A program made the translations under genes and the position numbers. Shown here piece by piece: positions 14,933-21,050 of a stretch of 64,000 nt of DNA. Numbering within the stretch: the first letter of the stretch is position 1; each line of letters opens with the position of its first letter. This stretch comes from Alphaproteobacteria bacterium (lineage in GTDB: Bacteria > Pseudomonadota > Alphaproteobacteria > UBA828), in assembly GCA_965221125.1 (NCBI GenBank), contig CBDCRW010000005.1, positions 700,419-764,418 of the forward strand. Reading direction: 5' to 3'. Under the pieces are notes generated by a model. The model searched no databases, was not told the origin of the DNA, and worked only from the letters and a program-made list of their open reading frames with translations.

Positions 14933-17410
14933 TCAGAACCGCATGTTGAGGGTGACGAAGAAGGTCCGTCCCCAGCCTGCTGCGGTGGGTCCGTCGGTCG
15001 CGGAGGGGTTCGCGGTGTTGGTGGAGAGCTTCGCGTCGGTGACGTTGTACACACCCGCGGTCACCCGCGTGCTTTCGAGCCCCAGCGGCGCTCTCCAATC
15101 GAGCGTCAGGTCGTGGCCGATCCAGGACTTGAACCGTCCATCGCCCTGCCGGTTCTCGATCTCGTCGCGGTAGTTGACGGCCCAGAAGGCGGTAAGGTCG
15201 CCGCGCCCGGCCGAGGTCACGATGCGCACGGCGTTGCGCGGGAGCGGGTACGGCTGCTCGTCGCCTGCGATGCGCTCCTCGCTGCTGGCCACGTAGCGCC
15301 AGAATCCGCGCAATGCGACGAAGCCCCAGCCGGTCTCCGCGCGGGCCCCGAACCGGGTGTTGAGCCCCGAGATATCGATCTCGACGATGTTCGCGAAGCT
15401 GTCGTGGATGGTGATGTCTCCGGCCGCGCGCTCGATACAGCCGGCGCCGCCGCCCGGCGGGCACTCGGGATGGTTCAGCATCGCCCAGTCGGCGTCGTGC
15501 TGTCCCGGCAGATCAGAGGTCGTGAGCGAGTACCAGTCGGCGACGAGGTAGAACGGCCCGCTGCGGGCCTCGGCGCCGAGGGAGCGCCTCTGCGAGCGCG
15601 ACGGGTCGAGCTCGGGGTTGCCGCTCGTGCGGCGCTCCACCTGCCGGTAATTCGACGTGTCGCATGTGCGCGGCGGCGGCCCGCTCTCGGGGACGCAACG
15701 GACATAGGGGTAGTCCTGCGCCGCTGTGCTGTGCAGGTGGTGCATCGAGGGCGCCTCGTCGCCCGCGCTCCACGAGCCGCGCAGCGCCACGATGTCGCTC
15801 GGGCGCCACTCGGCCCCGAGGCGCCAAGCGCGCAGACCGCCGACGTCGTCGTACTCGTCGGCCCGTGCCGCCGCTCTCACGTCCACGCTGTCGCCGATGG
15901 GCAGGGACAGCTCGGAAAATACACCCGCCTCAATGCGCTCGCCGGCGTAGCTGGTGCCGCCCGATCCGAGCACCCCGCTCACGTCGCGGGTCCCGCCGTC
16001 GCGCGCCCGGAACGAGAGCTGCCGGTGGGCCTCCACGTCGGCGAGTTCGACCCCCGCGGTCCATGCCGAGGCACGCCCGCCGATGCCCGGACCCGCCCCC
16101 TCGAGCGCGAGACGCGCGCCCTGGTACCTCCCGCCGAAGTCTTCTTCCTCGTGCAGGCTGCTCCTCTCAATCGCTCTCAGGTGGTCCGGTTCCACCGACA
16201 ACGGATTGGTCAGGTCGTACCTTCCGGCCTCGATCTCCTGCCTGATGATCTCGGCGTCCACGAAGGTATCGCCTCTCAACGAGCCGTCGCGGTTCCAGGC
16301 GCTGATCTCGGCGTCGTAGCCCAGGCCGTCAGCGAGACGGCCCTCAATGCTTGCCGAGACATCGTACTCTTCGATGCTCGTCCTCCAGTCACGGTTTCCA
16401 TGGCCGATGAAGCGGTGCCCAACCGAGAAGACGTCCTCTCCCGTCGCCTCGAACGCCGGGTCGGCCTCGCGCGCCGACGCGTTGATATCGTCGAGCAGGC
16501 TCTCGCTCGGGGTGACGGAGAAAACATCGATCGACGGTGCGTAGCGGAACGCCCAGCGTTCTTGCGTGACGTTTGCGTCCACGTGGAGCTCGGCGCTCTC
16601 CCCAAGCGGGTGGTCGAGGTTCAGGATGGTATTCTCCTGGCCGTAGCTCCCCCTGTCCCACCAGAAGTCGCCGTAGGCGAACCCGCAGCCCTTGTCGCCG
16701 GAGTCGATCCCCGGCGGGTTGCTGAGCGGGCCGGTGTAGCCGTGCGCCGGGTCGCACGCACCGAGCGGCACGGATCTCAGCTCGCCCGTGCTCGTGTCGA
16801 AGACGTAGACGGTGTTGCCGCCGACGCTCACGTTCCTCGCCTCGGCGAAGCTCCCGCCTTCCTCCCACTCGGAGCGGCTGTGCTCGCGTGTGTGGCCGGC
16901 GATCTCCTCGCGGTCAAGAACGTCGACGCCGAGGGCCATGTAACCGCCGGCGCCGATTTCGCCGCCCCACACGACGCTTCCCTGGCGCGCATCGCCGCCG
17001 TCGCGGCTCGGCAACCGAGCTACGGTGCGCACGTCGAAGCCGTCCAGGTCCTTCCTCAGCACGAGGTTGAACGCGCCACGCACCGCGGCGTGGCCGCCGA
17101 TCGTCCCCAGGCTCTCGCCTCTCAGCACCTCGATGCGCTCGACCGCCGAAAGCGGGAGGGAGTCCAGATCGTGCGCGGTCGTTGCGTAGGGTCGCCCGTT
17201 CACCATGACGAGCAGGTTGCGCCCTCCGGTGAAGAAGTAGCGGATGATGCCCGTGTCGAGCATCTCGCCGAACGTCTGGGCGCCGGAGCGCTCGATGAAG
17301 CTGCGGTCGTATTCGGCGACGATCTGCGGGCCCGGCGCCAGCGCGCCGGCACGGACTTCACCGGCCGCGAGAATGGCAGCCACGGCGAGCGCTGCGAGGA
17401 CTATTCTCAT
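14933..17410 (-). CDS. TonB-dependent outer membrane receptor
   Basis: Signal peptide MRIVLAALAVAAILA; plug motif LVMVNGRP...LPLSAVERIEVLR; C-terminus GVYNVTD...GRTFFVTLNMRF. Confidence 0.9.
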   Translation of the reverse strand: MRIVLAALAVAAILAAGEVRAGALAPGPQIVAEYDRSFIERSGAQTFGEMLDTGIIRYFFTGGRNLLVMVNGRPYATTAHDLDSLPLSAVERIEVLRGESLGTIGGHAAVRGAFNLVLRKDLDGFDVRTVARLPSRDGGDARQGSVVWGGEIGAGGYMALGVDVLDREEIAGHTREHSRSEWEEGGSFAEARNVSVGGNTVYVFDTSTGELRSVPLGACDPAHGYTGPLSNPPGIDSGDKGCGFAYGDFWWDRGSYGQENTILNLDHPLGESAELHVDANVTQERWAFRYAPSIDVFSVTPSESLLDDINASAREADPAFEATGEDVFSVGHRFIGHGNRDWRTSIEEYDVSASIEGRLADGLGYDAEISAWNRDGSLRGDTFVDAEIIRQEIEAGRYDLTNPLSVEPDHLRAIERSSLHEEEDFGGRYQGARLALEGAGPGIGGRASAWTAGVELADVEAHRQLSFRARDGGTRDVSGVLGSGGTSYAGERIEAGVFSELSLPIGDSVDVRAAARADEYDDVGGLRAWRLGAEWRPSDIVALRGSWSAGDEAPSMHHLHSTAAQDYPYVRCVPESGPPPRTCDTSNYRQVERRTSGNPELDPSRSQRRSLGAEARSGPFYLVADWYSLTTSDLPGQHDADWAMLNHPECPPGGGAGCIERAAGDITIHDSFANIVEIDISGLNTRFGARAETGWGFVALRGFWRYVASSEERIAGDEQPYPLPRNAVRIVTSAGRGDLTAFWAVNYRDEIENRQGDGRFKSWIGHDLTLDWRAPLGLESTRVTAGVYNVTDAKLSTNTANPSATDGPTAAGWGRTFFVTLNMRF

Positions 17411-17489
17411 CGTAGGATCACCCATTCGCTAGTGGATGCAGGCATTCTCCTCCGCGCCGGTCGCACGTCGGCGCGGAGCGTGCGGAGCC

Positions 17490-17640
17490 AAGTTTACTCG
17501 ACCGGCACGGGCGACGCTTTCCTCGCATTTGCCGCAGGCGCAATTTGGACGCACGGTGACGTTGACCAGAAGCTGCGCCGGGACGATGTGCAGCCGCGCG
17601 GCGCGGCGCTCGGCGATTCTCGTCATCTCACGGCACCCGG
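17490..17640 (-). pseudogene. Degenerate IS66 TnpC fragment
   Basis: MTRIAERRAARLHIVPAQLLVNVTVRPNCACGKC resembles MTKIGEDRSERLDYEPAKFTVIETVRPRYACNKC in the intact TnpC of this window. Boundaries are approximate. Confidence 0.65.
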
Positions 17641-18016
17641 TCCTTCCAAGGCCCGCATCGTCGATTTGCCGGGTGACGCCGAGGCTTGGCGGACCCGCAG
17701 GGTGCCGACGGACAAAGCCGAACAGGTATCAAGTGAACCGCACCGTCGATTGTCGCTCATGCGGTCACCCGGTCCGGCACGCTCCCTCCGGCAAGGACGC
17801 GGCGACCCGAGACATGACCACTTCCGCTCCCCGCAAGGCCACCGCACTCAAGGAAGCGATGACCAAGATGCCGTAATGGGGCTCGGCGCCAATCGGCACC
17901 ATCGGAGCCTGTCCCGATGACGACGAATCGGGTGTCGTTGCCCTTGCACGCTCAGCGTGCTCACGGGGTCTTGCCGGAAGGCGCGCCCCAATCCTTCGAG
18001 AGGAAAGGGCAACGAC

Positions 18017-19081
18017 ATGGCTGTCTATATCGGGCTGGATGTATCGCTGGCAAGCACGACAATCTGCGTGATCGGCGACAAGGGCAAGATCGTGACCGAG
18101 GCTCAGGTCGCCAGCACGCCTGACGCGTTGGTTGCGACAATTCGTGATGGGCAAGCGTGGAGGCACAGCAGACGCGTTGGTTCGCCGTGATCGTGTCTTG
18201 AGGCCGGTCCCCTGTCCCACTGGTTGCACAAGGGGCTGACCGACGCCGGCTTCGAGGCCGTCCTTATGGAGACCCGGCGGGTGAAGGCAGCGCTGAAGGC
18301 GATGCCGATCAAGACGGATCGCCGGGATGCCGAGGGCATCGCACGGCTTCTGCAGATGGGCTGGTTCAGGCCGGTGCACTGCAAGTCGGTATCGTCGCAG
18401 GAGATGCGCGCACTGCTGAACTCGCGCAGGTCCGTGAAGGACGCGCTCACCGATATGGAACTCTCGCTGCGCGGCGTGTTGCGCAACTTTTGCCTGAAGC
18501 TGGGCCAGGTCTCGAAGGGCCGCTGGGAGGCCCGCGTCCGGGAGTTGATCGCAGGCAACGCGATGCTGGAGGCCGCCGCCGAACCGATCCTGCGCGCGCG
18601 GGTGGCTCTGCGCCGCGAGCTGGCCGGCCTGGAGAAGCTGGTCCGCGATCTGGCCAGGGAGGATCCGGTATGCCGGCTGCTGATGACCATGCCCGGCGTA
18701 GGCGCGGTCGTGGCCCTGACCTTCAAATCGGCGATTGACGATCCCGGGCGGTTCCGGAGATCGAAGGATGTCGGCCCCTGGGTGGGACTGACGCCGGGCC
18801 GGGACCAATCCGGCGAGCGAGATATTGTCGGCGGCATCACGAAGTGCGGCGACGCAGGTCTGCGTACCGCGCTCTATCAGGCCGCCACGGTGATGCTGAA
18901 CCGCACCGCCGGGCCGAACTGGCTGAAGGCCTGGGCGCTTCGTCTGGCGAAGCTCCGTGGCAAGAAGCGTGCGACCGTCGCCCTGGCCCGGCGCATCGGC
19001 GTGGTACTTCACCGGATGTGGCGGGACGGCACCGAGTTCCGCTTCACGCGCGAGGAGGCGATGGCGCTCCAGACGGCATAG
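18017..19081 (+). pseudogene. IS110-family DEDD transposase with an in-frame TGA at 18188-18190
   Basis: YIGLDVS, LEAGPLS.WL, KTDRRDAEGIA, TMPGVG and GLTPGRDQSG motifs; both segments are in the same frame. Confidence 0.85.
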
Positions 19082-19149
19082 GCGCGGCTGCATCCCACCG
19101 GCAATCGGAAGCGAGAGGAGGAAAGAGCCGCGCCTGAAGGTGGCGATCC

Positions 19150-19330
19150 ACCGGTGTCCCCTCGCCGGGACGCGGTTCCCGTTGATGCACGCGCTGCGTC
19201 TTGTCGGCCGAACCGTTTCATCGCGTTCGAGCACGCGACCAAGATCGGCACTCGGGAATCGTTTGGACCAGGCATGACGTTGGCAGCCGCTGCGCTGACC
19301 ACGGACGGAAGCGAGAGCCTGGCGACGGAC
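19150..19330 (+). ncRNA. Putative bridge RNA / seekRNA of the IS1111 element
   Basis: GCTGCGTCTTG (19193-19203) is the reverse complement of target CAAGACGCAGC; GACCAAGA (19237-19244) equals the target top strand; ACGGAAG (19305-19311) equals the donor junction. All sit inside stem-bounded loops. Transcript ends are not known. Confidence 0.7.
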
Positions 19331-19898
19331 ACATCCGGGAATCCCGCTTCCTTCTTTGCCGCGCAGACGAGTCAGTTAGCCGCTCCCGCCATGGCAATCC
19401 GCTATGTTGACCGCGCCTGTGATTCGATTTGCAACAGGCTACGGTGCTTCATGTGCGAGCCACCGTGCCAGGCCGGAAGATCGTGAAGATCGGTGTTTGA
19501 CATCAACCGCCCCATTACGGAAGACGCAGCTGGTGGCTTCGCTGTCCGAATCGACGGGGCTGCCGAAGAAAGACGTCGCGGCGGTGTTCGACGAGCTCGG
19601 TGTTCTCATCGAGCGCCACATCAAGAAGCGCGCGGTCGGCACCTTTACGCTGCCCGGCCTTCTGAGGATCACCCGCGCGCGCAAGCCCGCCAGGAAGGCG
19701 CGGACGATGATCTCGCCACGGACCGGCGAAGAAATCCAGGTGGCCGCAAAACCGGCGTCCACGGCGGTCAAGCTTCGGCCGCTGGCGGGCCTCAAGCGGA
19801 TGGTGGAATAGCTCTCCGCCGCCCGGTCGAAACGGCGCCCGCGTTCCGGCGATACGTCCCGGCATGTGAGACGCATCGGCGCGCGCCGGAGTTCCGCC

Positions 19899-20741
19899 TC
19901 AGATGAGTTCGATATCCCTCGCCTGAAGGCCGCGCGCTCCCTGCTCCACCATCACGCTCACGCGCTGGCCCGCTTCCAGGCCGCCAAGGCCCGCACGATT
20001 GAGCACGATGCCCGGCACGAACACGTCAGGCCCGCCGTCGTCCGGCACCACGAAGCCGTAGCCCTTGGCCGCGTTGTAGAACTTGACCAGGCCGGAACGC
20101 TCCTCGGCCGGCCCGGCCGGCTGGCCGCGCTCCCACCTTTGCTCGCGCCGGTCCCGGTACGGCTCGTCGCGGCCCGCAGGTTGGGCCATGGCGGTCGAGG
20201 CATCGACGGCGACGATCGACGATACCATCGGACCCCGCTGGCCTTCCGCCACCTCGCAGGTCACGGTCGCGCCCTGCGGGAGCGTGTCGTATCCGGCGTC
20301 CCGGACAGCAGAGGCATGGCAGAACACGTCGGGCGAGCCGTCGTCGGGGACCAGGAACCCGAAGCCTTTCGACGGAACGAACCATTTCACGACAGCCTCG
20401 ACGCGGCGGGACGGAGCCGGACTCCGCTCGCCATGAAGGCGTCCGTAATCGCCGCGCGGCGGCCCGCCGCTCCCCGGTGGGCTCGTGGTCGCGGTCGACG
20501 TATCGACGGCATGGATCTGCCAGACCTGCAGGCCCTGACGGCCCTGCTCGACCTCACAGGTGACGGTCGCGCCCTCGGGAAGAGTGTCAAAGCCTGCCTG
20601 CGACACCGCCGAGATATGGCAGAACACGTCGGCCGAGCCGTCGTCCTGCGTCAGGAAACCGAACCCCTTCACCGGATTGAACCACTTCACTGTCGCCACG
20701 ACCGCGGCGCCGGGCGCCGATCCTGAACCGCCTTCCCGCAT
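19899..20741 (-). CDS. Cold-shock protein with three tandem CSDs
   Basis: Three VK(W/F)(F/Y)...KG(F/Y)GF...DVF repeats; start at 20741 chosen. Confidence 0.88.
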
Positions 20742-21050
20742 TCCGAACGACCTGCCTTCCGTGAGTTGCCGGGCCGCGCCCGCCGCCGGGCCGCCATCAT
20801 AGCCACGGCCGGGACGCGGCGACAGACCGGCGGACGCCTCGTGATCTGCCCCGGCCGTCCCCCGGATCACCAATCGGCGGCGCCTGCCACCCCTGCACGT
20901 CTCCGCCCCGCCGCCTCACCGTCGCCCCTCCGCCGCCACACGCCTGCGCGCCGGCATGAGCGAGAGCTCGGCCGTGACGCGGGCGGCGGGGGCGGCGCTG
21001 TGGAGCGTGTCCTCGCCGTCGGCAACCACCACCGGGGGAGACGGCAGACC

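Follow-up and report, generated by a model that had tools for sequence, protein, structure and literature searches.

An IS1111-type insertion sequence within an HU-like gene of an alphaproteobacterium and the probable guide RNA matching its insertion site

An HU-like gene of an alphaproteobacterium (UBA828 lineage) is interrupted by a mobile element near its 5' end, which raises the question of whether the element itself specifies the position at which it inserts. The window, the whole stretch of 64,000 nucleotides that was analysed, comes from contig CBDCRW010000005.1 of assembly GCA_965221125.1 (positions 700,419 to 764,418, forward strand). All coordinates are window positions, and G000 designates the organism's own assembly (7 contigs, 92% complete). 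The element is an IS1111-type insertion sequence (IS). Its 3' non-coding region most probably (a probability of about 0.9, as judged from sequence comparison) encodes a guide RNA of the seekRNA/bridge type that would aim the element at the 14-nt motif GACCA-AG-ACGCAGC, whose central AG is the core. An initial annotation, made from the letters of the window, had proposed an RNA-guided IS110/IS1111-type element with two target guides. Both the family identity of the element and the covariation of guides with targets (0/20,000 permutations, see below) bear this out. The interrupted gene and the element are laid out as follows.

17814-17867, + strand: HU-like gene, 5' part (MTTSAPRKATALKEAMTK), 18 codons up to the core; the ATG and the N-terminal extension are kept in uninterrupted relatives
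17866-17867, + strand: core dinucleotide AG at the left junction; second copy at 19522-19523
17868-19523, + strand: IS1111-type insertion sequence of 1656 bp, the core AG being counted once; junctions read directly
17871-17882, + strand: left subterminal inverted repeat CCGTAATGGGGC, 12 bp, preceded by ATG (17868-17870)
19509-19520, + strand: right subterminal inverted repeat GCCCCATTACGG, 12 bp, with A (19521) and the core AG (19522-19523) after it
19524-19811, + strand: HU-like gene, 3' part (TQLVASLSES... and stop codon); Pfam PF00216 Bac_DNA_binding, E 3.1e-13

The left junction reads ATGACCAAGA/TGCCGTAATGG and the right one CCATTACGGAAGA/CGCAGCTGG (the slash marks the joint), that is, ATGACCA-AG-ATGCCGTAATGGGGC and GCCCCATTACGGA-AG-ACGCAGCTGG. 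Because AAGA is present at both junctions, the exact position of the boundary is ambiguous over up to 3 nt. The uninterrupted target is found in nature. HU-like relatives were detected in 10 of the 20 congeneric genomes searched, the uninterrupted ones being 83-94% identical, and the site is contiguous in 10 of the 11 fetched loci outside G000, in the form ...GCGATGACCAAG/ACGCAGCTGG... (reading ...GCGATGACCAAG/ACGCAG...). Locus L105 stops short of the target part of the gene. The exact 14-mer, GACCAAGACGCAGC, stands in loci L102 and L103 and the others differ from it at one or two right-half positions. The target rebuilt on paper in the initial annotation is therefore a real sequence. From the uninterrupted relatives, the start of the protein can further be placed 15 codons upstream (ATG 17814), so that the insertion falls after codon 18.

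Two blocks of the 3' non-coding region match this target:

19193-19203, + strand: target guide T, GCUGCGU-CU-UG, complementary to the top strand CA-AG-ACGCAGC; variable part 19193-19199
19237-19245, + strand: target guide B, GACCA-AG-AU, top-strand sequence of the left half and core; variable part 19237-19241

Guide T corresponds to GCTGCGTCTTG at 19193-19203, whose reverse complement CAAGACGCAGC is identical to 11 nt of the rebuilt target. Guide B corresponds to GACCAAGA at 19237-19244, and the next base, T 19245, also fits the left junction GACCAAGAT. This guide would pair with the bottom strand, and its final two bases are the first two bases of the element. T lies 5' of B and their matches overlap by CAAGA in the target. 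The guide, stem and hairpin strings named in the initial annotation were all found in place on direct reading. Matches of this length were looked for in 5000 random 427-nt segments of G000 (contigs drawn uniformly, IS copies kept in). A complementary match of at least 11 nt occurred in 15 segments and a same-strand match of at least 8 nt in 844, hence the 8-mer alone is unremarkable and the 11-mer is rare. As the IS copies were not excluded from the draw, some of the 15 segments may be the element itself. The significance of the guides lies in the comparison of the family rather than in the window sequence alone.

For this comparison a scan of one genome per species provided 80 loci with recombinases 69-95% identical to that of the window element (86 loci with the six own copies). 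Both ends were located in 62 of the 86; the other 24, which run into a contig end or have diverged ends, and L073 (flanks under 10 nt) were excluded. The 3' non-coding regions comprise 34 distinct sequences. Alignment A1 holds 32 homologues, without L074 (anchor failure) and L050 (near-duplicate of L034), and 32 distinct guide pairs were scored, each against the target of every element. Across the scaffold in A1, runs of columns without a majority nucleotide occur only at 19193-19199 (7 columns) and 19237-19241 (5 columns), which are precisely the two target guides. The T guide scores on average 5.58 against its own target and 3.17 against the other targets; the corresponding means for the B guide are 4.28 of 6 and 1.53. 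For neither guide was a value as high reached in 20,000 permutations. The own target is the unique best match of the T guide in 18 of the 32 elements and of the B guide in 14 of the 32. Note that T was scored with a core-free local score, the anchored score that requires the core having undercounted guides that read CA for CU (L030-L033, L074). Individual cases are L008, with the target gtacc-AG-ccgctcgc and with GCGAGCGGCT and TACCAGAT, and L066, with a T match of 12 nt. The AGAT of guide B is present in 31 of the 32 aligned elements. Over the 32 pairs, the guides differ between homologues that have different targets. The outcome that the initial annotation had named as refuting its reading, identical guides at different targets, is thereby clearly contradicted. 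An exact scan of metagenome contigs with a 22-nt guide stretch returned two matches, which were dismissed as chance: they fall in an unrelated coding region and have no ends of the element close to them.

The ends of the element are as regular as its guides are variable. All 62 two-ended elements read flank/AG/AT(G/A)CCGTAAT... on the left and ...ATTACGGA/AG/flank on the right, with flanks that vary between elements and a context around the core conserved as A-AG-AT. The AAGA designated as core in the initial annotation is accordingly to be replaced by AG within this context. The conservation of junction letters is partly by construction because the end-finding pattern demanded them; an unbiased inverted-repeat search gives the same junctions. 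The left inverted repeat is kept, with variants, in the 62 of 86 loci that have both ends located. The inverted repeats are inset by 3 nt on the left and by 1 nt plus the core on the right, and the non-coding sequence measures 149 nt before the ATG at 18017 and about 442-443 nt after the stop codon (19079-19081).

G000 holds five further full copies of the element (1635 bp, 98% identical), whose 3' non-coding region is the same as that of the window copy in all six, bar the final A/G just past the right-hand core. Their targets are:

L001 (window): left GACCA, right ACGCAGC
L002: left GACCA, right GCGCAGC
L003: left GACCA, right ACGCAGT
L004: left GACCA, right ACGCCGC
L005: left TACCA, right ATGCGGC
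L006: left GACCA, right ACGCGCT

The orientation relative to the motif is identical in the six copies. ACCA-AG stands to the left of each of them (GACCA in five of the six), and the right half is ACGCAGC or carries one to three changes. Only L001 and L003 are hosted by HU-like sequence, L003 sitting in a short remnant of the gene, and the other four copies occupy partial matches. The HU-like gene is the only perfect target match in G000, where no unoccupied exact 14-mer GACCAAGACGCAGC was found (0.057 expected by composition) and three sites are one base off. The aim at an HU coding sequence claimed in the initial annotation thus holds in that this gene is the sole perfect match, but the specificity is for a 14-nt motif and only two of the six copies lie in HU-like sequence. 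A tblastn search of the HU-like fragment against the 92%-complete assembly, with E up to 1e-3, recovered the fragment itself and no intact paralogue. An empty paralogous site (G000:C2:151564-151577, one mismatch to the 14-mer) aligns with both flanks of L004 (258/309 and 236/285 identical), which join exactly at the core. Empty sites show that the core alone is shared between element and target, with no conventional target duplication. The same element was found in the orthologous HU-like gene on a 2.7-kb contig of another metagenome-assembled genome (MAG; locus L029). Its enzyme is identical over residues 86-347, and its flank has diverged, the right half reading ACACAGT.

The target guides are embedded in a conserved scaffold, whose features are:

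19146-19337, + strand: conserved seekRNA/bridge-RNA-like scaffold (alignment A1 of 32 homologues, helix covariation, covariance model R1)
19172-19181 with 19253-19262, + strand: outer stem of the target module, including TTCCCG 19176-19181 / CGGGAA 19253-19258
19207-19232, + strand: inner hairpin between the target guides, GC-CGAAC / GUUCG-A-GC with a bulged A; CGAAC 19209-19213, GTTCG 19225-19229
19279-19302, + strand: hairpin between the donor guides, with a bulged A (helix 4)

The target module covers about 19172-19262 (91 nt), and target and donor modules together about 19166-19321 (156 nt). The outer stem (helix 2) has 14 pairs, 5 of them changed on both sides, with 94.9% of cells paired. 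The inner hairpin (helix 3) has 7 pairs, 5 changed on both sides, with 96.5% paired. These compensatory changes substantiate the TTCCCG/CGGGAA closure and the CGAAC...GTTCG hairpin already seen in the initial annotation. Helix 4 has 8 pairs and 98.0% of cells paired; at one of these pairs, 18 sequences have AU and 12 have GC. The three helices are backed by RNAalifold as well as by direct counts of the pairs. Overall, 12 of 33 pairs change on both sides and 96.5% of cells are paired, as compared to 29-45% when the partners are slid by one to three columns; none of 500 shuffles reaches the observed values of pairing and covariation. The outer stem continues in a second, short stem (19184-19188 with 19248-19251), at which the guide loop closes. 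Since outer stem and inner hairpin enclose them, the two target guides form the two strands of an internal loop. A 5' hairpin (19156-19160 with 19167-19171) is about 99% paired and has no compensatory change. A search of G000 with covariance model R1 yields exactly six matches, one per full IS copy at 183.7 bits each, and no orphan guide genes. Rfam cmscan of 17000-20500 with E up to 10 returned only a chance snoRNA match (18889-18928; 19.2 bits, where the gathering score is 38).

Downstream of the target module, two shorter blocks correspond to the ends of the element itself, and are assigned a donor role with lower confidence than that given to the target guide RNA:

19271-19275, + strand: putative donor guide GGCAU, the complement of ATGCC (17868-17872, top strand) at the left end
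19305-19311, + strand: putative donor guide ACGGA-AG, identical to the right end and core (19517-19523), which would pair with the bottom strand

The similarity of ACGGAAG to the donor junction was noticed in the initial annotation, and rightly so, as the block equals the right end plus core and follows four of the six variant right ends (ACAGAAG in L021, L059 and L064; ACGAAAG in L024). The remaining two variants (L053, L084) keep G and are wobble-compatible. GGCAU had been overlooked and its bases placed in a stem, CCAGGC 19268-19273 / GCCTGG 19317-19322, whose 5' strand GGCAT 19271-19275 overlaps. The two strings of this stem are present and enclose ACGGAAG, but the stem is paired in only 77.5% of cells across the family, 17 of the 32 sequences breaking two of its six pairs. 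Among seven variant left ends, four are compensated exactly (ATACC/GTAT in L030, L034 and L053; ATGTC/GACAT in L082), and the other three (ATGCT) keep GGCAT, a G-T wobble being allowed.

Several observations weigh against the assignment of a guide RNA with target and donor modules. The T guide matches the single known flank poorly in 9 of the 32 elements (L011, L013, L016, L020, L025, L052, L058, L064 and L065, with ranks of 12-32), and some B matches are also weak, for instance in L013 and L016. The shuffle tests overstate independence because the related sequences are kin. In the own genome, L006 is mismatched at three of the seven positions of its right half-site, and specificity is loose on the right side since up to 3 mismatches in 7 are tolerated there. 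The folding check suggested in the initial annotation for the 3' region lends no support to structure, stability relative to shuffles being unremarkable (z = -0.39 for 19082-19516 and z = +0.84 for 19150-19330), and the minimum-energy fold pairs the two target guides with each other. The outer closure of the donor module may be either CCAGGC/GCCTGG or an alternative helix (19166-19169 with 19318-19321) that is 99.2% paired, has no compensatory change and would place the donor nucleotides in a multi-loop. The donor-binding role is less secure than the target-binding role because a short seekRNA of ISEc11 without the donor part sufficed for transposition in the data cited from PMC11187229. Finally, contigs from RNA libraries report presence only, as the libraries may hold DNA, and they display no ends, strand or transcription. 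Among the listed runs in which part of the stretch is found, 14 are recorded as RNA libraries, and the contigs of four were examined. Contigs of two studies cover the guide region (X3, 19176-19320; X4, 19159-19292 and 19263-19323) and stop near 19320-19323. RNA-library contigs cover both element ends; those of X3 and X4 leave gaps in the recombinase gene.

How far do these points favour other explanations? One reading retains the target module as a real guide and denies that GGCAU and ACGGAAG are pairing segments: the ends would be recognised by protein through the subterminal inverted repeats, and the two blocks would be scaffold or be conserved for other reasons. It has the 82-nt short seekRNA of ISEc11 in its favour, which holds target matches only and supported transposition even better than the long form according to the portion of PMC11187229 used here, where the authors also consider that end recognition in IS1111 may differ from IS110. 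The donor matches are moreover short (5 and 7 nt), and the 5' donor block does not pair with the core, GGCAU being followed by GA and not by CU. Against recognition by protein only, 8 of the 13 end variants are mirrored exactly in the donor blocks and the other five are wobble-compatible, and donor-complementary nucleotides in IS1111 multi-loops appear in the description by Durrant et al. (PMC11208160). We regard this reading as unlikely.

A role of the target-like blocks as DNA, or their survival as relics (captured target copies, an enzyme decoy site) with no RNA guide at all, is very improbable. In its favour, the RNA-library contigs show no RNA ends, and some copies in a Kordiimonas MAG whose right end is joined to the guide DNA of another copy imply that guide DNA can be a recombination substrate. 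The blocks nevertheless occupy both strands of an internal loop whose closing helices keep pairing through compensatory changes, which argues for selection on a folded single strand, and relatives were found by experiment to use RNA from this region (PMC11187229, in the results cited here). Mere chance similarity in a G+C-rich non-coding region could account for the 8-nt same-strand match, present in 844 of 5000 random segments, and would agree with the unremarkable folding energies. It is faced with the rarity of the 11-nt match (15 of 5000) and is already contradicted by the family covariation (0/20,000 permutations), leaving it a negligible likelihood.

A guide RNA with a target module thus remains the preferred reading, and the way in which it would operate can be outlined. 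Its action as RNA, its processing, its binding by the enzyme, the circle and the chemistry of the reaction are modelled on published relatives. The target module would be a stem-closed internal loop whose 5' strand (19193-19203) would pair with the top strand over the right target half and core, while its 3' strand (19237-19245) would pair with the bottom strand over the left target half and core, both reading the 14-nt GACCA-AG-ACGCAGC. GGCAU and ACGGAAG, which flank a hairpin, may pair with the joined ends of an excised circle (...ACGGA-AG-ATGCC...). An RNA-bound DEDD/serine recombinase would then exchange strands at the core AG, a proposed step that would account for insertion in one orientation without duplication beyond the core. 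The circle junction would in addition assemble a promoter, TTGACA-17 nt-GAAGAT, predicted to drive the recombinase gene and the guide region downstream of it. Its upstream half is:

19497-19502, + strand: TTGACA, -35-like hexamer, in a right-to-left-end circle 17 nt from the junction-spanning GAAGAT

Each of the 34 distinct 3' regions has TTGAC close to the right end, and 33 of them have the 17-nt spacing to GAAGAT. GAAGAT exists only when right end, core and left end are joined. These putative -35 and -10 elements fit the junction promoter known for the IS1111 family, which would explain the invariance of A-AG-AT. The joint between right and left ends of a circle was not seen in the contigs of the four RNA-library runs, although contigs cannot show its absence. 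One contig (X2, depth 4.47) skips 61 nt (19081-19141) in the spacer that separates the scaffold from the stop codon, hinting that this spacer is dispensable in a natural variant.

The enzyme that would be guided is encoded upstream of the scaffold, in a gene that is broken in the window copy:

18017-19081, + strand: IS110-family recombinase gene (DEDD and Transposase_20), broken; open frames 18017-18190 and 18224-19081
18137-18194, + strand: scrambled patch disrupting the reading frame of the recombinase, with 10 substitutions and additional runs of 7, 13 and 1 nt that set it apart from the five sister copies

In the window copy Pfam recognises two pieces of PF01548 (E 0.0033 and 3.7e-09) together with PF02371 (E 2.2e-22). 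The five sister copies all encode an intact enzyme of 347 residues (P0001), which reaches 249 bits with model NF033542 ('IS110 family RNA-guided transposase'; cut-off 140) and contains GLTPGRDQSG, fitting the GL-P----S(t)G motif. It aligns to the IS621 transposase structure 8wt6 over the C-terminal domain (E 3.5e-13), the N-terminal domains of the two proteins being barely alignable by sequence. As its ends and guide region are intact and five sisters encode an intact enzyme, the window copy could still move in trans. The patch itself, of 58 nt and a net gain of 21 nt, has GACGCGTTGGTT twice nearby and is unlike a simple point mutation. Its origin as an assembly artefact is possible; no examined RNA-library contig spans it.

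Comparison with characterised systems places the element in a known class. The traits listed for IS1111 in the cited part of PMC11187229 are the GL-P----S(t)G motif, an enzyme of 330-350 residues, subterminal inverted repeats of 7-17 bp and a longer non-coding region downstream; the window element displays each sequence-level trait of the IS1111 group and of its seekRNAs, including the order of T before B. The IS1111 seekRNAs of ISEc11, ISKpn4, ISPa11 and ISPst6 (Siddiquee et al. 2024, PMC11187229) are likewise described there as lying in a 3' non-coding region, in elements with a DEDD recombinase of about 340 residues and subterminal repeats. They have two short overlapping target matches, the one complementary to the top strand being 5', and a promoter formed from joined ends, as proposed here. 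Natural re-aiming by the matching blocks alone on a conserved stem is seen there between ISEc11 and ISXne4, as in the present family, and the sizes of 91 and 156 nt fall inside those reported for the modules (70-100 and 145-170 nt). The window element differs from those elements in its target, in the 5' coding part of an HU-like gene and not in REP, attC or Tn21-IR sites, and in an evident donor-matching second module, none being assigned in the portion of PMC11187229 considered. This likeness is one of anatomy.

The bridge RNA of IS621, as presented in the portions of PMC11208160 (Durrant et al. 2024) and PMC11208158 (Hiraizumi et al. 2024) considered and with structure 8wt6, has the same logic of target and donor loops, with half-sites on opposite strands around a dinucleotide core. 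The resemblance extends to the C-terminal domain of the enzyme (E 3.5e-13) and to target-loop bases next to the core that match the donor, which here would be the AU after the core in guide B. Unlike in IS621, the RNA would be in the right and not the left end, the order of the target guides is reversed, the core is AG and not CT, the inverted repeats are long and subterminal, and the donor nucleotides are probably in a multi-loop. Bridge RNAs of the IS1111 group were predicted for ISCARN28, ISAzs32 and ISPa11 (Durrant et al. 2024, PMC11208160), and, according to the same passages, for 93.0% of IS1111 elements, so that the kind is already known. No report of an IS1111 element specific for an HU-like gene was found in the literature, in a search judged by titles and the beginnings of abstracts that did not extend to ISfinder and supplements, where a close relative may be listed. 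Novelty of the target specificity is plausible.

A number of further observations concern copies and relatives of the element. In the left flank of L003 (G000:C5:53962-58584), over about 142 nt, a unit of 71 nt stands twice in perfect tandem. The unit has its end exactly at ...GATGACCAAG, which is the left target half and core, so that this half-site is present twice before the element. Either recombinase action or unequal exchange could have left this duplication as a footprint. L007 (G000:C6:220871-221123) is a lone left-end fragment of 255 bp, 96% identical, with the flank ...TATTC/AG/ATGCC. The Kordiimonas MAG carries a relative that is 75% identical, and in several of its copies a piece of the element's own guide-coding region comes after the right end (T-guide DNA in L035 and L046; B-guide DNA in L036 and L038). 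An insertion into, or recombination with, the guide DNA of another copy, which by design resembles the target, is suggested by this arrangement. G000 also encodes a different IS110-family recombinase in two copies (C3:392157-393134 and C4:166507-167484; 315 bits against NF033542) and two partial ones (C2:60018-60803 and C7:303676-303921). Downstream of the HU-like gene, an open frame on the minus strand (19899-20873, 324 residues) has three cold-shock-domain-like motif repeats, as read from its translation.

The surroundings of the target invite a broader view of the association between element and gene. The congener G011 has nine matches to the HU-like gene (e.g. L098, L107). Together with the occurrence of relatives in 10 of the 20 congeners, they suggest that the gene rides on a repeated or mobile module. 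Two more speculative ideas, both rather unlikely, are that A-AG-AT has a triple duty, as crossover core, as part of the -10 hexamer GAAGAT and as the donor-matching bases of guide B, in which case the family could re-aim all but these six bases; and, separately, that the element is a dedicated, possibly reversible switch or hitch-hiker on the mobile HU-carrying module and not a random passenger.

The window element leaves the known mechanism unchanged. Its family offers one scaffold with 32 naturally re-aimed guide pairs and insertion sites, a covariation set for the pairing rules of IS1111. In this less-studied branch, it may teach how long the guides are (5+2+7 nt), how much change the right half-site tolerates, which mismatches occur at the core (such as CA for CU) and what part a possible donor module plays. 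Genome annotation can profit as well, since nucleotide sequence by itself allows elements of this kind, and the sites that they prefer, to be predicted. For the organism and its relatives, guide specificity explains why different genomes have the HU-like gene interrupted at one and the same codon.

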